From: Vicugna vicugna | Taxonomy: Eukaryota | Length of the DNA: 36,769 nt | Direction of reading: 5' to 3' | NCBI GenBank assembly: GCA_013265495.1 | Contig: MU057560.1 | Coordinates: 3,658,909 to 3,695,677 of the forward strand | Part shown: positions 4,477-36,769 of the stretch, in pieces | Layout of the letters: the number at the start of each line of letters is the position of its first letter | How positions within the stretch are numbered: the first letter of the stretch is position 1 | Made by a program: the position numbers and the translations under genes | Notes under the pieces: generated by a model | Databases searched by the model: none | What the model was told of the DNA's origin: nothing | The model's input: only the letters and a program-made list of their open reading frames with translations

Positions 4477-5432
4477 GTACTAAGATTCGAAATTGGGAAA
4501 CATGATCCTACAGTTTTGATTTTCCCTTTCAAAGTTGTTTTGGCTCTTTGGAGTTCCCTGTAGTTCCATACGTAGGGTAGGATAGGCTTGTGTATTTCTT
4601 CCCTTAGGCCTTGGGACATTTCACAGGAGCCACATTGAATCTGTAGGTTGCATCGTGCACTGTTGCCATCTTAACAAGATTAAGTCTTTCTATCACCATG
4701 GGATGTCTCCATATTTAATTAGGGTTTCTTTCACCAATGCTTTATAATTCTCAGTGTACCAGTCTTGCATCCTTATTAAACCTGTTCCAAAATATTGTAT
4801 TAATGCTGACATTATTTAAAGGAGAATTGTTTTCTTAAATTCCTTTTCAGGTTATTAATTGCTAGTGTCTACAAATAAAATTAACTTTTGTTTCTTGATA
4901 TTTTGCTCTGTAGTTTTGCTGAACTAGTTTAGTAGCTCAGATAACTTCCTGTTGATTCTTTAGGTGGGTCTATATATAAGATGATGTGAGTGGTGTCTCT
5001 GAATAGAAATGGTTTTACTTTTTCCTTCCACATGTGGTTGTATTTTCCTTCTTTTCTCATTACTCAGTGTAGAGATTCCAGTACAGTACTGAGTAACAGT
5101 GGGGAAAGCAAGCATCATGGACTTTTTTTCTTGATTTCAGGAGTAAACCTTCAACTTGAGCATGAAGTTTGCTATGGACTTTGCATAATAGTTTTTTTTT
5201 AATCATATTGAACAGATTTCCTTTTAATTTCTTGAGTGTTTATGAACATGAAATAGCACTGGATTTTGTTTAAAGTTTTTTTCTATATCAATATAACCAT
5301 GTGTTTTTATGTCACATAGTTACTGTGGTGTATTACCTTGTTTGGTTTTAATTTGTTGAAAAACCTGGATTTCTGGTGTACAGACACTTGCTTGTAGTGC
5401 ACAGTCCACGCCTCCCCTCTATTTTTTAACCT

Positions 5433-5737
5433 GTTATGGTTAATGGGTATGGGTTAAATTTAGGGTTAGGGTAAGATATGGGTATGAGTCAGGGCTAGAC
5501 TAAGCCTAGTGTTTAGTCCTGGGTCAGGATCAGTGTCCACATTCAGGGTTGTTGTAGGGGTTGTAGAGTTAGGGTTAGAGGGTTAGGGTGAGGGTAAGGG
5601 TCAGTGTTTAGAGTTTAGGAGTCAGGGCCAAGGGTCTAGGGGCCTGGGGTTAGGGTATAGGGTTATAGGTTAGGTGATCAGGGTATAGGTGAGGGTGTTA
5701 GGTTTAGAGCATTAGGGTTAGAAGAGTTAGGTTTAAG
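5433..5737 (+). repeat. Degenerate interstitial telomeric (TTAGGG-like) tract
   Basis: About 50 hexamer-phase units including ttagggttaggg, gtgagg, tcaggg, tataggg. Confidence 0.9.
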
Positions 5738-6720
5738 CATCACTGGCCCATTCCCTTCTCTCTCTTATCCATCTCTCTGAGGCCTCCAGGATGGACAGGA
5801 TTAGCCCAGAGTCACACATGAGTCAGGGAGTTGACTGTACCACTGTTTTTCTGCCCCCCTGTCCTGGGCACTGAAAGAATGAAATGTCTGTTGTTATCAC
5901 TGACTGTTTCAAATCCAACTCAATCTCAGTCAAGGCTTGTGGAACCTCAGAAGTCACAAGTGTTTTCCTCTGCCCTCTCACCTGGGCAAGGCATTGCTGT
6001 CCCCACTCTGCCTATGCAGCCCCAGGTTCCAGCACAGTATTGGCACCCAGAAAACTCAGTAGACATGTGTGGATGTACACAGGGCTGGGTGGAGGGACCT
6101 GCCAGCCCCCAGGTGCTCCCTTTGTGTGTGCTGATGGGCCACCCCCTGGAACTGGCTGGATCTTTTGTCCCATCTGAGTGGGCATCAAGGGATAGTCAAG
6201 TCAGGCAGGACAGCCCTTGACTTCTGACCATCTGGGCAGGCATTCATGGTCCTCCAGCTCAGGCCAGCCTGGGCCTGTCAAGACTCTGTTGTCAGTTACT
6301 AAGCTGACTATGCCGTTGGGCAATTCAACAACCCCCTGGGTAGTGTAGAGAGCACCTTGGGATATTTCAGTTCTCTACATCCATGAGGCTGGCAAAAGTG
6401 CCTTCTGCCTTGCTACCTCTTAGCTTGCTAAGAGAGATAATAAACCATGTGGTGCCCTGACCTGGGGTCCTTGGCAAGCACCACACCCCATTGCCTTTAC
6501 CTGATGTGCTTTTGGAGAGTCCTCCCCTGCCCCCAGCAGAAATACTGGGCCTGAGGCTCTCAAGTGCTCTGCCCCACCAGGCCTCACCACTGAGCCACAA
6601 GATCAGCCTTGCACACCCCTCCTTCCCCAAGGGAAAATCACACAGAAGAGAGGAATGGGAAGTCCTACTTGTCAGCATGACAGGGAACAGGGACATGGAC
6701 CAAAGCGCCTCAAGAGGCCT

Positions 6721-9209: not shown

Positions 9210-9682
9210 TGTGAATAAATAGTAGTGCAAGCCATATCAGTAAGCAAAGAATGCTGAAACCATCAAGTCATCAGCAGCTGCTGCCACCCCCCAGTGAAGA
9301 CAAGCCTGCCTCCTAGCCTCTCCAGGCACTCACAGTGGTGCACCCTGAGGGGACTCAGAATAATAAAGGACAAGATACTAGCCCTAGACAGCTAGGTGCT
9401 TGTCAAAGGAAGGAATTCAATGAGTGCAAATGTTTGCTTCCTCCCATACATAGAAAAGCACTAAATTCTTTTACTTGAGATGCTTGCTTTTTTTAAGATA
9501 ACAAGTAATCTTTTATTGTTCCAACTACCTGGTCTTTGTTGTAAAGCTCCTATATATCCTAGCTCCTTCCTTACCTCTTTGGAGCTCAGAGAGATCTGAG
9601 AGGCTGTCATCTCAGCTTGAATCCTCCTGCTGAATAAAACATAACTCTCAACTTTTAGGCTGCCCATTTATTTCAGTTGACT
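9210..9682 (+). mobile_element. 5' LTR of provirus
   Basis: tgtgaataaat...tatatat...aataaaa...ttcagttgac; preceded by GTAC; first ~270 bp repeated at 16207 (about 33 mismatches in ~272 bp by eye). Confidence 0.9.
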
Positions 9683-9686
9683 GTTA

Positions 9687-9703
9687 TGCTGACCAGAAGG
9701 GAC
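9687..9703 (+). other. Degenerate primer-binding site, tRNA-Arg type
   Basis: tgctgaccagaagggac versus the Arg PBS TGGCGACCACGAAGGGAC, immediately after the LTR. Confidence 0.6.
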
Positions 9704-9897
9704 CGAGAGCAGACTTCTCTCCTTTACCTGAACTCTATGAGGAACCAGAGCCTTGGTACCAGCAGAGGCCCTTTGTGCCCATCTGCCTCCTTGAGTCCAG
9801 ATGAATTTGGGTGAGTCTCTCCTGGTTCTCAGATCTCTAATATTGGTTGATGATCCTGAGTTTTACTTGGTGGTGTATCCAGTACCTGGCCCTCCAG

Positions 9898-10140
9898 TTG
9901 AAAGGTACCAGGGTGGAGGGATACCCACCCAGTGGAGACATGCTGGGTGGGATCTGATTGAAAGATAAGAGGAAATACACACCTAGATGAGACATCCTAG
10001 GTGAGGGGGATGCTGCTTGAAAGACACCAGGGAAATACCCACCTTGAGGAGATGTCTTAGGTGGGGCTTTGTGAAAGATGCCAGGGAAATACCCACCCAG
10101 TGGATACACCCTGGCTGGGGCCTGGTTGAAAGATACCAGG
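9898..10140 (+). repeat. About 4.3 tandem 54-60-bp units in the ERV leader, each holding a stem-loop (Psi-like)
   Basis: Units begin (T/G)TGAAAG at 9898, 9958, 10017, 10071, 10126; each contains C(C/A)CACCYAG...CTRGGTG-type inverted arms. Confidence 0.85.
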
Positions 10141-10660
10141 GTCTGGACAGAGTGGTTAGGTAAGAGGTTGGTCTAATGCTTTCCTCATTTTGGTTACCTC
10201 CATTGAATTTATCAGGATAAAAGTAAAAATCTTATGAGGAGCCTTTTGATTCCAAAAATGGGACTCTCCCCCTGGTTGGCAACAGCTTTTTCAGGTGACT
10301 GAGAAACTTGCAGGAGTGGTAGAGGCAAATGTGCAGTTGTCTCTGTGGGGAAACCTACTAGCAATTTTATTTTAATAACCTGACCTTAGATTGGGAATAG
10401 ACCTTTGAAAACAAAAGAAAAAGAAATGACAGACTTCCAGCCTCCAACTAATACCCCAACCAGGTTTATGTATGTACAAAACTTACAAATTTAATTGAAA
10501 ATTAAAAAAATCTCACCCTGAAAATAACTAGCCAGGCCTGATAAAAATATTTTTTGGAATTCTGATCTTACAAAAACAAAAGCCCCTTTAGGGGGACTTG
10601 GATTTCTCTTCCTGTGTCCTTGAAATGTAAATGTTTTATCTTTCTCTGGGCATTTTCTGT

Positions 10661-10698
10661 GTATGTATGTATGTATGTATGTATGTATGTATGTATGT
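10661..10698 (+). repeat. (GTAT)n microsatellite
   Basis: gtatgtatgtat... about 9 units. Confidence 0.95.
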
Positions 10699-13600
10699 GT
10701 TTCTTTTTTAAAGAAAACTTGGACTGCCATCCAAAAGGAACAAGTATGGTGTACATAGTGTGGCCAAGCAAATAAGTTGGGATTCTGAACAGTCCTTTGA
10801 TTGTACCAATTCTCAGGCATCTTGCCATCTTAACCTTTGTTGCATCAGCCTGGACTGCAAAGGCCTTTACCTTTTGGGGAGTAAACTTTTGAATTTTATT
10901 TAGGCAGCACTCCCCACCTCATGTGGGAGAGTCGCTTCATCTTATTAGTTTAAAATCACTACTAATATATATTGATATATTAATATATGTAATTGATATA
11001 TATTGATATATCTCATTGATGGCCATATGATCTATCCTTTAAATTGGAGAAACTTCTAAATTGGTGAAAGCTGAGAGAGCTCTCATTATAAACAGCTGCT
11101 TTATTGGCACCTATTAAAATCAATCAAGGTTAAAGGTGGGAAAATATATATAATTATTAGTCTAAGAACTTAGAAAAAAAATGGTTTAGAAAGCTACATT
11201 TGTTATTTCCCTTTCCCTTTAATGGGTTTTAGAGATGCTAATAAAAACATTAGAATAATTAATGTTAATTAGGTTGAGTAACTGGAAAAAGGAATGTAAA
11301 AAAGGTCAAAAGATTTTTTTCTTAACAAGGGAAAAATAAGGGACTTATCCGAAATGGATAAATATGTTTAGATGTTTATTTGGAATGTGATAAATAAAAT
11401 GGACATTTATGGATTAAGATACAAGGTTTTGATTCTACACTACGTAAAGTTTAAAAAAGCCAAAGGGATCACCTACTGGACCCCGACAATAAAGTTCAAA
11501 CAAGTCCACTTTATTTACCCCAGTTTAAAATATATATATTTATAGGGCTGGAAAAAATATATAGACTGATATACTTGATCAATGATTGGGGCAACAGACC
11601 AATTAATCAAATTAAAAATTGACAAGGGCCTAAGTCCTTTGGCTCAAACTTGGGGATCCCAGAGACTTTTATATAAAATTATATAAAGTGGACAAGAAAT
11701 AAAAGAAAAACGCATCTGACACTCTTTCTAGAAATAAGACTTATTGATTAAACCTAATAAATATTAAAATTTAGGGTATAAGAGTTGATAAAATTGAGAT
11801 AATGGTTTATAAAATTGATATATTTAAGTGGGCTTTATATAACCTCTTTTGCTTAATTATGTTGTGGGATGGATATATTTCAATGAAAAATGCTTCCCTT
11901 TCTTGGTATTATAAGACTGGGCACATATCCGTCCCTCAGAAAATATTAATAAAAAATAGTAAAGGAAATGAATAGAGTTACCTGAGCTGTCCAATATAAA
12001 GTAGAACTAAAAACTAATATTCAGGGACTAATAAAAAAATAATAAGAGATTTACCCTGGGTTTAACTTATAACTCAAGGAAAAGAGACCTTACTAAATGC
12101 CTTATGCAAACTTTTGAAGACATGATATAGTAAGCCTTAAAATTAAAAAAAAATAAAAATTCTTTGTTTAGAGCTCTTCTCACTGATACAGAAAAGCAAA
12201 TTAAGGAGCTACAATTGGACCTAGGTGACAGACCAGTTCTTTCAGGAACTGGAAGCAACTCTTTGTCTTGCAGATCAGAAATATAAATACAGCAAGCAAT
12301 GACCTGAGACTGAGCCTAATTAGCTCAATGAAATAAAAACTTAAAGCCAAAGAAACTTTTGGCATTTTAGAACTCAGAAATCTGAAGGGTCCTTCAGATT
12401 TTGTCAAGGACAAATAGAAATCTAAATATCTTTTTCATAAATAGTAAGCCTTAGTGATTTGAGCAAGCAAATTCAATGTATTCCATCATTTATAAGCAGT
12501 AAATTTATATTGTAATAGCTAACTCATAACTAAGTTTTAAAGTGAAGCTATGAGACCTCTAGTTTTGTCTGTTTATAAGTCTGTGTACACGTTATAGATA
12601 TGAGATGTCTCTACTGCTAAAAAATATCAAAATCAAAGAGCTCTACTTAACTGACTAAAAAATAAGCACTACAAATTAAATATTTCTAAAGTAAAAATTG
12701 ACCAAACTGAGTTTCAGGTTCACGTGAGCTGGAAAATAATCGATATTAAGTTAATACTTGGTATTAAATTTAGTTTAAGTTTGTTCTAATTAATATAGAC
12801 ATCTTTAGAGTCAGCAATATTAAGTATAATACCTTTACTATACCTAGGTTTAATGAAAGTCAAATAAGGTCTTGTTATATCTGTTGCAGATTTGTCACAC
12901 ACACAAAAAAAAGTAATAACGTGGTGATAAAATTCTAAGTAAATTAAATACAAATGAGCTAAGAGCTTTTTAGTACATGCTTTAGAAATATATTTTTAGA
13001 AAAGCATGCTTAAGATAATCTCTGTAAATATTTGGTATCTTAAAATTCAAGAGTTGTGCTAAATTAAGTTAAATGATGAGAGTTTATTAAATAGCTATGT
13101 CATTTTCAGATAAAATAAGATTGAAATATTAATTGCTTAACATTTGACTTCCTCTTATAGAGAAACTAAAGGTGTTTAGAAATGTTAATAAATGATTAGT
13201 GCCATCCTGAATTCTCTACTAGTAAGGGAAACATCTCAGTATCCTAGGAAAGTAAGATGAATGTGTAAAAGAAGGTATGAGAAATGGAATTATATTTTTG
13301 GTTAATGGGAAATAGTGACTTTGTCCTGAAGCTGGTTACTTCTGAATGGAAGAGAAAATAAGGGACAAGATAATATGGTATAGAAAGTTGTTGAAGGCTT
13401 GTGGAAGAGAGATCCTGAGGAAATAATTTTGTACATGGTCAGGATTGGTTAAGTTTAGAATAAATTTAATAGAATCTTAGAAGTAAGCTGGTACAAGACT
13501 AGATTTGGTTTTCTCTCTGTTAAGAGGACAAAGTTTTCTTAAAATGTTAATCTGCCTTCACTAACAGATTGTAAAGTTTCTTTTATCCCTTAAGTGATCT

Positions 13601-14938
13601 ATTCTGCATTTACTTTTGAAATATTTTCTTGTTAATGAATAAGTACTGTTTCATAGTGACCTATACTTTTATCTGACCAAGTGTTTTGAAACTTTTTAAC
13701 AAGTTTCCCAAATATCAAACTTTAATCAGAATTCTTCTGACCTCTGGCTAAATCTGGGATGCTTTAGAGGGCCCCTGAAACATCCCAAAGAGAGATTGTA
13801 AACTAGTAATTTCATTTGTTATGTTAAATTATGTGGGAAGTATTGTCAAATGAATAATAAATCTTCCTAGATTATATTGTATGAGATAATACTATTAATG
13901 TAGATATTCTACAAATTATATGGAATCCCTAAAAATATGGTATATCTGAAATGTTACCAGTCATAATTCTGGTTATTGTGACCAGGTTTCTTTATTGATT
14001 ATAGTGTAACTAGGTGTTTAATCATGCTTTTAAGTCTTTTGTCATTTAGAGACAGTTATTGTTTTATAGTGATGCTTTTGCAAAATGCTTTCTCTTCGAG
14101 GAGATTTGCTGGTTTCTAATAAATTTTAAACTCTAGCACTGAACTAAACTGGGTAAGAAATTTTAAAGATCTGATGAAAACTCTGATTTCATAAAACTGT
14201 TAACAAAAGGATTAGTTACATGGGACTGAGTAAACTGATGAATATGGTTATAATTTTTGATTTTTGTCTGAAATATTACTGGCTTTTAATCTGTGTTTCC
14301 CAGACATAAAGAAAGCCTTCTCCTTAAGCTAATTATGACTCAAAGCAATTTGACAAACATACCTATGTAAGCAGAGTTGGAACAGTTTCTTTTCTCTCTA
14401 TCTGATCCCTCCAGAGACTGGAAACACTTAGGTGGCTCTATCAGATAAATTAGGAAAATCACCTCCTAACAGGTATAGGAATCACAAAGTATTTTGAGGA
14501 CCTTAAAGAGAAAAAAGTTCACCTAAATCTGTGAGGCAAAAATCTATGACAAGCCCTTAATGTAGCTTTCTTGGCCTTAGAAAAGCTTATTAAAATTATA
14601 GCCTGAGACTTCTTATTAAAAGTTCCAACATAGCCATTTTAAAAGAACATCTATGATCAAATAATCAGTCTTAACTTGTAAACAAATTCATCTTGATTTG
14701 GCTATATTTGATAAAAATGGGGGTAACTTCAGAGAGAAAATGATTATATTTTAGTGGATATTAAATTCTAGTTTTGTTAATTGAGGTCTATATTTACTAA
14801 GACTCACTTCCCAGATCATTCCTTGCTGCTATGTTACATTGCTGCAAAGTTTAATTGAATTATGAAAAGGACAGTCTAGGTTTGTTTCTGAAGCTCTGTA
14901 ATCTACCCTTGGATGAAGACCCAATTCCCCATGATCCA

Positions 14939-15075
14939 CAACCGGGGCATTACACATACTGGAACAGACATGACTTAAAAAACTATCTCCAACCTGGATG
15001 GAAGGGCCCTTTATCAGGTACTCTTAACTAGATCATACACAGCAGAAACTGAAGGAAACTGAATTTTGGATTAAT
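14939..15075 (+). pseudogene. Retroviral integrase C-terminal (GPY/F) remnant, frameshifted
   Basis: Translates QPGHYTYWNRHDLKNYLQPGWKGP/YQVLLT...KLKETEFWI, matching gammaretroviral WKGPYxVLLT...WIH. Confidence 0.8.
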
Positions 15076-15249
15076 TTCCAGTCAGAAAGAGTCCCTGCAC
15101 TGGACTGACCTATAGAGCACTGCTCTCCTTAAAACAATGCTCAAATGGAGAAGAAGATACCAGGCCAGGATGAGAAGACATCTGAGGTAGACATCTGACC
15201 CGAGACACTGGACCAGGCCTGTCTACCAATTATTTTGATAATTGCTCAT

Positions 15250-15930
15250 ACCTTTGCTTATGAACTAATCCAATTGTCAGGTTTATGGTCAATTACTTAT
15301 ATCTACCACTTCTGTGTTACCTTGGTGTGTTTCCCTACTCCAAGGCTCTAACTAGATAGCCCTCAGAAAATTTATTCTAAAAAAGAAATTACAGCTTTTT
15401 AGGCCACTATTGACATTACAAGATGGGAGACCTCACCTGGCCAATTAATAATACCTGCTCTGAGCCTGACCATAAATATGAATATTCTTATAAGATCACT
15501 CAAGCTCAATCAAGGCAACAAGCAAAGAATATTACTTCCCTCAATTATGGAAAGGACTTATATAGTTAACACCAGGGTATGGACATTCAAGTTTAAAGGC
15601 TCTCTTATGTTGGAAAAATTAAGCTATACTAAAGATAACCAACCCAGTAACACTATGAAATTTGGCTGGGAGTCTTATGACAATGCCTGTATAACATCTT
15701 CCTTAAAGATAAGGATTAGTACAGAACAGACTAATTCATATGACCTGGGAATTCACTGAGCTTCACCTAATGGAAGTTTTTGGCTTAAATTCTTATGACC
15801 TTACTAATACTGTTAACTATAGTATTTGTATTTTGCCTTTTTTATAAAATTGTTTCTGCATTACCAAATGTGTGACTGAGCCTCTGATAAAATAATGACT
15901 AGGCAACTTGAAACAGTAGATGAGATATAT
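15250..15930 (+). pseudogene. Deleted retroviral env remnant
   Basis: SNCQVYGQLLISTTSVLPWCVSLLQGSN* (CWVC-type SU start), GIH*ASPNGSFW, then hydrophobic LMTLLILLTIVFVFCLFYKIV (TM anchor-like). Confidence 0.65.
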
Positions 15931-16206
15931 ACTTCTGTATGACCAATGATTGTAATAGTGCAACTCTAGATATGGGACGAAGCAACATGAGGGAATATTT
16001 TCCTGGATCATGATAGATTAGTAAAATAGGTGACCCAGAGAATTTTTGAGTATCAACAGGGCCTGAGCCAAAAATTAACACTTGAGTGGCATGTCAACAG
16101 AATCTTCTGCCTGATCTAGGAATGAGCCTTCGTAGCATTATGGGACAGAATTGGTCATGAAATGTCTCCCAAAATATTGGTCAAATTTAGGACCAAGGGG
16201 GAGCAC

Positions 16207-16478
16207 TGTGAATGAAAAATACTGCAAACTATATCAGTAAACAAAGAATGCTGAAGCTATCAAGTCATCAGCGGCTGCCACCAACCCCCAGTGAAGACAA
16301 GCCTGCAGCCCAGCCTCTGCAGCTGCTCACAATGGTGCCCTCTGAGGGGACTCAGAATAATAAAGGACAAGATACTGGCCCTAGATAGCTAGATGCTTGT
16401 CAAAGGAATGAATTCAACAAGCTCAAATGTTTGCTTCCTCCCATAAATAGAAAAGCACTAAATTCTTTAACTTGAGAT
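16207..16478 (+). mobile_element. 3' LTR of provirus, truncated; PPT aagggggag immediately upstream
   Basis: Direct repeat of 9210-9481, ending abruptly at ...cttgagatg. Confidence 0.9.
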
Positions 16479-16479
16479 G

Positions 16480-17636
16480 TGTTGGATGCCTTTTTTTCTA
16501 ACCCTCCAGACAATTTAATTTGTGCAGTACAGTTACTGAAGTTGACAGGGTCAATTTGGACACCAGGGAGGTGTCAACATGTGAACTCATCTTGTTTCCA
16601 GGAGGGCTCCCTTACAGGGTGGTTCTCAGAAGTGCCTATAGTCTGTTTCTAAGTTTTAGCATTTTATGTTATCTGGAGAGACAGGGAATTCCCCAAATCA
16701 TCCTCTGGCCCCCCCTTTGTTCAATAGTCCTTCTTTCAGCTATCTGTCTCCTTTTTGCTATTTAGTTTAACAGCAAGGAAGAAGCAGCTAGGAGACACTC
16801 AGTACTTTCTGGAAATCTTAGCTAGTTCACCTAATGCTTGGGCTCATTTTGAACTTTCCACATTACTGTAGGAACAGTGTTACTAAACTTTCTGACACTA
16901 GATAACAAAGATCCTCTTTCCTCTAGTTTGTAGTCAGAGTTTTTGATACTATCCTGTAAGTCCTGTCAACTGAAATAAATGCACAGCCTAAAAGTTAAGA
17001 GTTATGTTTTATTTGGTGGGAGGACTCGAGACGGCATGACAGCCTCTCAGATCACTCTGAGTGACTGCTCCCAAGAGGTAGGGGAGGAGCTAGGATATAT
17101 AGGAGCTTTACAACAAAGACCAGGTAGTTGGAACAATAAAAGATTACTTGTTATCTAAAGAAAACCAGGCATCTCAAGTTAAAGAATTTAGTGCTTTTCT
17201 ATTTATGGGAGGAAGCAAACATTTGGGCTCACTGAATTCATTCCTTTGACAAGCACCTAGCTATCCAGGGCTAGTATCCTGTCCTTTGTTATTCTGAGTC
17301 TGCTTAGAGTGCACCATTGTGAGTGGCTGCAGAGGCTGGGCTGCAGGCCCATCCCCACTGGGGGGGGTGGCAGCAGCCACTGATGACTTGGTTTCAGCAT
17401 TCTTTGTTTACTGATATGGTTGCAGTATTTTCACTCACACTGCAGTGTTTTCATTCACAGTCCTCACTAACAGCCTCCTGAAAATATGGACTTCTGTTAA
17501 CAGTCTGTTGACACCAAGTCAAGCTTTCACTAACACTTCTGAAATCCTTTTCACTTTCTCCCACTGCCTGATATCAAAGCCACTCCCACATTTTAGGTTT
17601 TTGTTATAACAACCCAGTGCTATAGGTACCAAAATT
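16480..17636 (-). mobile_element. MLT1 (MaLR) internal region, split by the solo LTR at 16964
   Basis: cccacattttaggtttttgttataac...ggtaccaaaatt|tgta is the typical MLT-int/LTR junction in reverse; left boundary approximate. Confidence 0.7.
16964..17459 (-). mobile_element. Solo ERV1 LTR of the same family as the provirus LTRs
   Basis: Reverse complement of 9210-9682; TG...CA; TSD GTCC (16960-16963, 17460-17463). Confidence 0.95.
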
Positions 17637-19893: not shown

Positions 19894-20310
19894 TGTCTAA
19901 TGAAAAAAAGCACAACCTAAAAGTTGATCATTACATTTTATTTGGGGACATGGCTGAGGACTATAGCCTGGAAGCAGCTCCTCACATAGCTCTGAGGAAC
20001 TGTTCCAAAGAGGTAAGGGAGGAGCCAGGTTATATGAGTTTTTGCTGAAAAAAGTATTCAGACATTAAAAGACTATTGCTAATAATGAAAAACATACATC
20101 TTATGTTAAGGATTTTAGTGTTTTTCTGTGTATGGGAAGATTCAAGCATCTGGGCTCATTGAAATTATTCCTTTGATATGCACCTTAACTGTCTAGGGTC
20201 AGTATTCATTTTTTTTTTTTTAATCCTAAATTCCCCTCAGGGTGCACCTTTGGGAGGCAGCTGCTGCAGTGGCTGATGGCTTGATGGCAGCATAATCTGT
20301 TGTCTACATG
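19894..20310 (-). mobile_element. ERV1 LTR, an older relative of the 9210/16964 family
   Basis: tgtctaatgaaaaaaagcacaacctaaaagttg...gaggtaagggaggagccagg...ctgggctcattgaaattattcctttga, collinear with 16964-17440. Confidence 0.8.
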
Positions 20311-22620: not shown

Positions 22621-22744
22621 AGTTTTAAAGTTTGTGTCTCCATTCACTTCATTCCGTAAGGCTTCCGATTGATTGTTTCTAAGTATTTGGAGAAGTTACA
22701 GATATTGGGCTCTATTTCATTTGAATTCCCAGTTTACAGGATTG

Positions 22745-23022
22745 AGCAGAGCCGCTGTCGGCGCGGGGCCTCTGCTGGCTTTGAGGGCGGCTGGGCCCGC
22801 GCTTTCTCATTGGCTGGCGGGGCCCAGAGCCCACCTCCCCCAGCTGCGGCGGGAACTCGCGTGCGTTCTGCCTGAGGATCCGGCGTCCTGCGCAGCTGAC
22901 TGGAGCCGCGTCTCCTCTGGACCTGCTGGGGCTTCGGGACAGCAGGGGGTTATGTCCCCGCTGACAGGAGCCCCGTCTCCTCAGGACCCAACAGGAGGTG
23001 CTGCACTGAAGGGAAGGTGAGG
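22745..23022 (+). promoter_or_regulatory. Small CpG-rich promoter/first-exon-like element (module copy A)
   Basis: The only CpG-dense patch in the window; reverse CCAAT (attgg ~22809), GC box ggcggggc, putative donor gaag|gtgagg near 23016-23022. Confidence 0.55.
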
Positions 23023-23129
23023 AGGAAGGAAAAGTGAGGGAAAGTGAGAAGTTTCCCACAAGGGGCTGACTGCTGAGGGGAGGCCCTCCTCCTCAGAGGC
23101 CCCAGCAGAGGAAGGGCTGGATGTGAGAA

Positions 23130-24932: not shown

Positions 24933-25602
24933 TGTGCAGTATCCCATTGGGTATACACTACATGTATTTTATCCATTCATCCGCTGATGGACAGGTGAGT
25001 TATTTCCACCTTTTGCTGTTGTGATTAGTGCTGCCATGGATATGGGTGTACCCATTTCTATTCCAGTTCCTGCTTTCAAATATTTTGAACATATATCCTG
25101 AAGTGGAATTGATGGATCACATGTCAACCCCATGTGTAAGTTTTTGAGGAACTTCTGTCTGGTTCTCCACCATGGCTGCACCATTTTATTGCTTTATATG
25201 GCAGAATAATATGGCAGTTTATGGATGTACAGTATTTGTTTATCTATTTAGCCTTTGATGGACATTATTGTGCAGTATCCCATTGGGTATACACTACATG
25301 TATTTTATCCATTCATCCGCTGATGGACAGGTGAGTTATTTCCACCTTTTGCTATTGTGATTAGTGCTGCCATGGATATGGGTGTACCCATTTCTATTCC
25401 AGTTCCTGCTTTCAAATATTTTGAACATATATCCTGAAGTGGAATTGATGGATCACATGTCAACCCCATGTGTAAGTTTTTGAGGAACTTCTGTCTGGTT
25501 CTCCACCATGGCTGCACCATTTTATTGCTTTATATGGCAGAATAATATGGCAGTTTATGGATGTACAGTATTTGTTTATCTATTTAGCCTTTGATGGACA
25601 TT
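24933..25602. repeat. Near-perfect 334-bp tandem duplication inside an L1 3' end
   Basis: 24933-25266 and 25269-25602 differ by one substitution (gctgtt/gctatt); twin 71-aa ORFs in the ORF track. Confidence 0.95.
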
Positions 25603-35850: not shown

Positions 35851-35962
35851 CAGGTAAGTAGCAATATACAGGGAAGTGGAGGATTCTATTTCGGGGGGGG
35901 ATGTATTTTTGTTACATCTTCATGGGATTTGACCATCATGAGAGTGGTAGGTTGTTACAAGA

Positions 35963-36769
35963 AAATAGGATTAAGGATTAGGATCAGGGTCAAAATTAGG
36001 GGTAGGGTATGGGAATGGGTTAGGGTTAGGGTCAGTGTGAGGGTACTGGTGAGAGTTAGGAAAAGGGGGAGGGTGCGGATTAGGGTAGGAAATAGGGGTA
36101 GAGTACAGGTTAGGATAGGAGTTTGGAGGTTAAGTTCAGGGTATGCGTAAGATACGGGCTGGGGTACAAGTTAGGTTACGCATTAGGGAACAGCTTAGGG
36201 TTAGGGATAGGGCTAGAACCATACCAAGAGTTAGTGTTAGGGCTAGGGCTAGAACCAGAGGAAGGAATAGAGTTAGACTCAGAGTTAAGGGTAACAGGGT
36301 GAGGGATAGACTCAAGGTGAGACTGAGGGTTTAGGGTTAGGGTTAGGGTTACACTCAGGGTTAGACTCTGGGTTAGGGTTATATTTAGGGTTAGACTCAG
36401 GGTTAGACTTAGGGTTAGACTCAGGGTTAGACTCAGGGTTAGAATCACGGTTAGACTCAGGGTTAGACTCAGGGTTAGGGTTAGACTCAGGGTTAGGGTT
36501 AGACTCAGGGTTAGACTCCGGGTTACTCTGGGTTAGGGTTAGGGTTAGACTCAGGGTTATGGTTAGACTCAGGGTAGGGTTAGACTCAGGGTAGGGTTAG
36601 GGTTAGACTCAGGGTTAGACTCAGGGTTAGGGTTAGGGTTAGACTCAGGGTTAGACTCAGGGTTACTCTGGGTTAGGGTTAGGGTTAGACTCAGGGTTAT
36701 GGTTAGACTCAGGGTAGGGTTAGACTCAGGGTAGGGTTAGGGTTAGACTCAGGGTTAGACTCAGGGTTA
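35963..36769 (+). repeat. Telomere-derived array: degenerate TTAGGG (35963-~36330), then regular TTAGACTCAGGG/TTAGGG satellite to the window end
   Basis: Read directly; G-rich strand is +, so a chromosome end would lie to the right. Confidence 0.95.

Follow-up and report, generated by a model that had tools for sequence, protein, structure and literature searches.

A tandem hairpin array in the leader of a non-coding class I endogenous retrovirus, most likely a decayed gammaretrovirus-type dimerisation/packaging region

The provirus and its leader

The window, by which we mean the whole stretch of 36,769 nucleotides analysed here, contains a decayed provirus of 7.3 kb whose leader carries four tandem fold-back units (Table 1). 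The succession of LTR, primer-binding site (PBS), interior, polypurine tract and LTR, together with a remnant of gammaretroviral type, places the element among the class I endogenous retroviruses (ERV1), the 4-bp target-site duplication being seen on a sister solo LTR only. The two LTRs are 88% identical over 287 nt (K2P 0.13), which presumably corresponds to about 30 million years at a rate of 2.2e-9, with a wide error. Three donor-like sites are found, at 9810, 10000 and 10159, and the ATG at 10258 has a good context. In a comparison made by eye, the site at 9687 resembles the R/W PBS motif given in the supplement of PMC4724089, with two substitutions and one gap.

Table 1. Features of the provirus (positions of the window)
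Feature	Position	Strand	Details
5' LTR	9210..9682	+	starts TGTGAAT; terminal dinucleotide with last base drifted
Decayed PBS, Arg/Trp type	9687..9703	+	
Splice-donor-like GGTGAGT	9810..9816	+	
Unit 1, type X	9899..9958	+	spacer, hairpin 9924-9951, loop GACA at 9937; strongest fold
Unit 2, type Y	9959..10017	+	hairpin ~9980-10003, loop GACA at 9991
Unit 3, type Y	10018..10071	+	hairpin 10038-10065, loop GATG at 10051
Unit 4, type X	10072..10126	+	hairpin 10092-10119, loop TACA at 10105
Closing spacer hairpin	10117..10146	+	CCTGG/CCAGG arms, -13.6 kcal/mol
Second donor-like GGTAAG	10159..10164	+	stretch well covered in other copies
AT-rich interior	10260..16194	+	GC 29-30% at 11-14 kb; no gag, RT or env signal
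Integrase C-terminus remnant, gammaretrovirus-type, broken	14909..15028	+	tblastn and Pfam MLVIN_C
Polypurine tract	16195..16203	+	
3' LTR	16207..16498	+	truncated, 3' half missing; own target-site duplication uncheckable

The element had been annotated as a non-coding ERV1, which is a fair description, with an integrase tail as the only coding trace. Indeed, when 95 frames from 20 reference loci were compared with the element, this tail was the only part of it that they matched (tblastn E 0.002, against E 0.023 for the best control; six Pol frames agree with it at 40-44% identity). The corresponding Pfam match to MLVIN_C has an E value of 0.059, below the cut-off, and is a single weak match among 12 short fragments. 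No Pfam family was detected in the three plus-strand frames read with X, the integrase remnant as query gave no match in a search of proteins, and the longest stop-free plus frame of the element is 118 aa, although very distant, decayed genes could have escaped these coding searches. Because gag and RT signals are lacking, the element needed a helper. No tRNA was found in the window.

The element may be related to the MER4I group and to LTR39/MER34-like ERVs, whose LTRs possibly have a similar 3' end, and this putative likeness fits PMC4724089. In the available part of PMC4724089, the defective ERVs of the MER4I group and the LTR39/MER34-like ones share with our element a highly defective interior and an unusable Pol; an R/W-type PBS, described there in several MER4I-group members, and an A-rich sense strand are further points in common, and leader hairpins are not mentioned in that part. 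Rodent VL30 is likewise a non-coding class I element, packaged by a helper via a leader signal, with imperfect repeats in its dimer linkage (excerpts of PMC516450). Large ERV1 clusters without ORFs are described in alpaca (PMC8605555), and long leaders are general in gamma-like HERVs (PMC6995185). The full-text literature searched gave no account of arrays of GACG hairpins in the leaders of ERV1 elements or camelid ERVs, a weak negative, with few subscription papers or Repbase reports covered.

The surroundings of the provirus hold further LTRs. Beyond the break of the 3' LTR, positions 16499-16963 are unrelated sequence up to an inverted solo LTR, and the missing 3' half of the 3' LTR occurs nowhere in the window. 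This solo LTR (16964-17459, minus strand) is complete and of the same family, being 88-90% identical to both provirus LTRs; a 4-bp target-site duplication surrounds it, and a short stretch at its start is duplicated. An older related LTR lies at 19895-20300 on the minus strand, with about 70-76% identity to the 5' LTR.

Folding of the units and decay of the loops

The array consists, as the initial annotation had it, of four tandem fold-back units of 54-60 nt. Their lengths are 60, 59, 54 and 55 nt, a fifth spacer follows at 10127-10142, and the plan of each unit is a purine-rich spacer and then a fold-back of 7-9 pairs. All the stems given in that annotation are present, with imperfections in units 2-4: an A-A mismatch at the stem base in unit 2, the loss of two top pairs in unit 3 and a C-C mismatch in unit 4. 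A spacer hairpin weaker than the closing one opens the array (9883-9916, -9.3 kcal/mol), and the internal spacers fold poorly (-1.7 to -4.1 kcal/mol).

The 248-nt array has a predicted folding energy of -92.4 kcal/mol, which beats 200 of 200 shuffles (z -3.85). Taken singly, the core of unit 1 alone folds strongly (z -4.76), the values for units 2-4 being -1.5, -2.2 and -0.8. When the whole leader is folded, the outer stems of units 1-3 reach probabilities of about 0.9-1.0 for most pairs and that of unit 4 about 0, and the inner register of the MLV type is predicted at 0, 0.06, 0.35-0.39 and 0-0.17 in units 1 to 4, respectively. Unit 1 favours an 11-bp stem with a six-base loop, and such a loop is also favoured by at least one paralogue piece with the 3' side of unit 1. 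The inner stem comprises one to three pairs and then a bulge in units 1, 2 and 4, and four pairs including a G-U in unit 3; decay may explain part of this shortness. The plus strand folds better than the reverse strand in two of the four units only. A plus-strand scan for hairpins capped by GACA, GATG or GACG, at -10 kcal/mol or lower, passed 3 of 289 sites; two of them lie in the array, which is the sole cluster.

Paired changes from C-G to T-A between units had been noted. They are present, but in a single column that sets units 1 and 4 against units 2 and 3, that is, as one event. There is one compensatory column among the four units, and hairpins that share a template count as a single observation, however many they are. 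Core identities are 27/32 between units 1 and 4, 25/32 between units 2 and 3 and 22-24/32 in the other four pairs. The order of the units is therefore X-Y-Y-X and not the X-Y-X-Y of a doubled pair.

The four loops read as first reported. The array of the present copy contains no CpG and no GACG, in the loops (none of four) or elsewhere, so that for this copy we infer GACG rather than read it. Among 31 core columns, CA and TG occur together in one alone, that of the loop dinucleotide, and in a simulation such a mixture arose from a CA ancestor with a chance of 0.8-6.6% per column. Other copies of the family add to this. They were sampled in four public DNA runs, which represent four organisms and whose contigs were aligned to 9790-10200 at 80% likeness (491, 172, 291 and 193 contigs per run). 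Eight of the pieces listed span a loop, and they read GACG in two cases, GACA in three, GATG in one, TATG in one and none of these in one; the eight are a selected subset of a larger number, and two may come from the same locus. Two GACG loops in eight have a probability of about 0.001-0.02 at an assumed CG frequency of 0.5-3%, against a local one of 0.2-0.5%. Whether the loops of other copies give GACG had been suggested as a check, and in this small, selected sample they do so in two of eight pieces. Both the CA/TG loop column and the GACG of some paralogues thus support a GACG ancestor altered by CpG decay, as originally proposed.

Among the rows listed, alternative letters at the loop dinucleotide occur in 13, 8, 5 and 6 contigs for unit 3 and in 1, 2, 1 and 0 for unit 2; letters of this kind cannot by themselves separate GACG from the other decay product. 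Unit 4 is odd in its loop, its closing base and its stem mismatch; hardly any other contig shares these three traits, which are private to the present locus.

Each spacer has a second decay site of the GA-CG type after GAAA. These sites read GGTA, GATA, GACA, GATG and GATA, at 9904-9907, 9964-9967, 10023-10026, 10077-10080 and 10132-10135, and none is at a hairpin apex. GA-CG is therefore not specific to the loops, since the spacers show a like CA/TG decay outside them, which the initial annotation had not noted and which makes the loop column one of two with this mixture. A second tetraloop formed by the spacer GA-CG was considered and rejected, the closing pair being absent in all five spacers.

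Reference leaders, other copies and competing explanations

The array is most likely a decayed dimerisation/packaging hairpin array of gammaretrovirus type. For comparison, we collected 20 loci via an RT motif, comprising 12 gamma-type, 7 delta-type and 1 unrelated. In 11 of the 12 gamma-type loci the leader contains 2-4 GACG hairpins, against 0-2 in the remaining 7.5-8 kb; nine have two (five of these being close MLV relatives), two have a cluster of three and one, an old endogenous sequence, has none in the strict scan. The two references with three hairpins, L017 and L024, presumably resemble gibbon ape leukaemia virus and koala retrovirus; the gag and pol frames of both are open. More than two hairpins are therefore not peculiar to non-autonomous elements. 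These two leaders share with the array the excess over two GACG hairpins; unlike it, they belong to elements with open gag and pol, their loops are 28-37 nt apart and their hairpins are not tandem repeats. L024 has a fourth, weaker GACG hairpin at 558-561, just upstream of the donor. In L028, an old endogenous gamma-type locus, one GACG and one GACA stand in stem-like contexts by eye (640-690); neither passed the strict scan.

Among the closest known counterparts is the pair SL-C/SL-D of the core encapsidation signal of Moloney MLV (H2/H3; Rfam RF00374, Gammaretro_CES). The MLV hairpin with which the units had been compared was named SL-C; it is in fact the second GACG hairpin, SL-D/H3 at 355-374, SL-C/H2 being at 310-352 (a numbering taken from the title of a cited reference), and its loop is at 363, with the gag start of that locus at 621. 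The array lies, like the MLV pair, in the leader 3' of the donor, and its stem-loops resemble SL-D in the A-U closing pair, the GGA/UCC-like context and a loop derived from GACG. That PBS, donor and array follow each other as up to Psi in MLV was borne out, with a PBS-like site at 9687 and GGTGAG at 9810. The donor is 127 nt from the first loop, as compared with 58-187 nt in six of the eight reference leaders with a donor match, and the bins at 9804-9831 have the top summed contig depth in two of the four runs.

Several differences must also be considered. MLV has two unlike hairpins 33-34 nt apart, whereas the array has four tandem units with spacers of 22-28 nt. Its loops are 54, 60 and 54 nt apart, against 28-37 nt in the references, a distance that does not permit the stacking seen in the SL-C/SL-D pair in that form. 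The inner stem has 4-9 contiguous pairs in the references and 1-4, bulged, in the array, and the PBS is of the R/W type, in contrast to Pro in MLV. A palindrome of 10 or 16 nt was not found in the leader, the longest being of 8 nt at 9754, upstream of the donor; age erodes palindromes. The motif UCUG-UR-UCUG was not found in the leader either, where two isolated TCTG occur at 9953 and 10142, the former not common to most other contigs. The Rfam model RF00374 gave no match to the window at E values up to 10, with sub-threshold noise only; as it finds one of eight reference genomes at its own threshold, this model is MLV-specific.

Statements on unit number rest on 32 pieces listed out of 1,201. 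Among these, the present locus recurs with one difference in three of the four runs, and two other loci, 13-16% diverged, cover all four units. A two-unit copy is an unbroken contig over 9794-10148 lacking 117 nt, the joint of which is found in three of the four runs, and another joint, one side of which is 77 nt long, is short of a single unit, leaving about three. Unit number thus varies among paralogues, with two, about three and four units observed. As two-unit and four-unit paralogues coexist, the number may have changed. A six-unit form (joint leading back 106 nt, in all four runs) and a one-unit form (skips of 175 and 207 nt) were discounted, their sides being 20-39 nt long and repeats being prone to misalignment. 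Contig coverage is thin over the middle units relative to the flanks, in a summed depth that is no measure of copy number. Pattern scans for family copies found none in viral contigs, prokaryote genomes or plasmids; four pattern matches in metagenomes were set aside as chance, agreeing over the 21-27-nt pattern only and having bacterial CpG levels.

We lean towards seeing in the array the fossil of a dimerisation/packaging region that belonged to a multicopy family of class I ERVs and was made of kissing hairpins, which later underwent CpG decay. In the active element, each unit would have folded so as to show CG in a hairpin loop. In MLV, the CG of each GACG loop pairs with its counterpart on the second RNA and so makes the dimer more stable (PMC3247676, PMC3265304, PMC7599994 and PMC5874298); by analogy with such gammaretroviral hairpins, the loop CG may have kissed a like loop on a second genome. 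An array placed just 3' of the donor would mark unspliced RNA, and a row of kissing hairpins could stabilise genome dimers for packaging by the helper. After integration, deamination of methyl-CpG would have turned the loops into GACA or GATG, leaving the present copy dead. Direct repeats are readily lost during reverse transcription, and we infer that short direct repeats of this kind were gained and lost by template switching at that step, which would make unit number fluid (two to four seen, perhaps more). Four units would then be one state of the family rather than a device special to non-autonomous elements.

The initial annotation had read the number differently, proposing that a non-autonomous element doubled its hairpins from two to four, perhaps to compete for helper Gag. 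In the full form of this model, more helper Gag or better dimers would have driven its amplification, which we consider quite improbable. Two- and four-unit paralogues do both exist, at least three loci share four units, an element devoid of gag and RT signals needed a helper, and two is the number in nine of the twelve gamma-type references, five of these nine being close MLV relatives. However, the X-Y-Y-X order of the units speaks against a doubled pair, and so do the intermediate, and possibly larger, unit numbers among paralogues and the three hairpins of two coding-competent references. The few contigs over the middle units are also unlike a dominant four-unit form, with the reserve that depth does not give copy number. 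As for the suggestion that the additional hairpins competed for helper Gag, MLV NC binds exposed UCUG and not SL-C, SL-D or the SL-CD pair, and these hairpins alone are insufficient for packaging (PMC7599994), while Gag recognises UCUG-UR-UCUG (PMC3265304). This idea is weakened because extra hairpins would add RNA-RNA contacts, not Gag sites. It likewise seems to us hardly likely that GACG kissing hairpins extend to MER4I-like class I ERVs as an expandable array whose number was selected for helper capture. On the same reading, genomes would hold a dose series (two, three, four or more) with copy numbers recording the pay-off, and of this we are just as doubtful.

A role at the level of the linear sequence is unlikely but deserves consideration. 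G-runs 3' of the donor may have served as splicing regulators, for which factors of the hnRNP F/H type are candidates, or the CpG sites may have been bound by proteins on DNA, the likeness to GACG hairpins being incidental. Such a role would agree with spacers that, including a decayed GA-CG of their own, are preserved no less than the hairpin, with the presence of three donor-like sites, and with a weak strand asymmetry and a single covarying pair. Yet the sole paired change preserves the stem, each of the four units has its GA-CG precisely at the tip of a 7-9-bp stem, and the context of the loop agrees with that of MLV SL-D. It is also rather improbable that the array is a neutral minisatellite, in which one hairpin, whether functional or not, was tandemly multiplied and the extra copies were idle, even though four hairpins of one template amount to a single observation, unit number varies freely and units 2-4 are weak folds. 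Indeed, the two stem types are still paired after having diverged, and several loci received copies of the four-unit form. Moreover, the units are 72-80% identical, against 88% for the LTRs; since the identity between units is below that of the LTRs, the units diverged in a replicating element and their stems were kept.

Cis-signals for the helper packaging of gene-less ERV1 families are hardly described. If the units did carry GACG kissing loops, this motif would be older and wider than the MLV-related viruses in which it is documented, and it could be multiplied in tandem. Given the variable number among paralogues, one could then ask from genomes alone whether additional hairpins brought a higher copy number. 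As far as shown, the array has no effect on host biology, the present copy being decayed.

Other features of the window

Degenerate telomere-type repeats with a 12-nt variant unit occur at 35960-36769 and 5400-5750 (24 and 6 TTAGGG, respectively), from which the window looks subtelomeric. Between 6730 and 7130 an ACTACA...CCCAGA motif recurs about nine times at intervals, with five strict matches; we take it for a binding site of ZNF143/THAP11, of the kind that promoters of zinc-finger genes typically contain. Two nested inverted repeats surround an LTR-like stretch, at 7606-7684/8334-8412 (94%) and 7980-8037/8252-8309 (88%). The region 22700-23050 is CpG-island-like, with an observed/expected ratio of 0.61 against 0.14 in the window, and is possibly a promoter. 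Finally, positions 24933-25568 contain a tandem duplication with a spacing of 336 nt, identical over 300 nt, which is either very recent or an assembly artefact.
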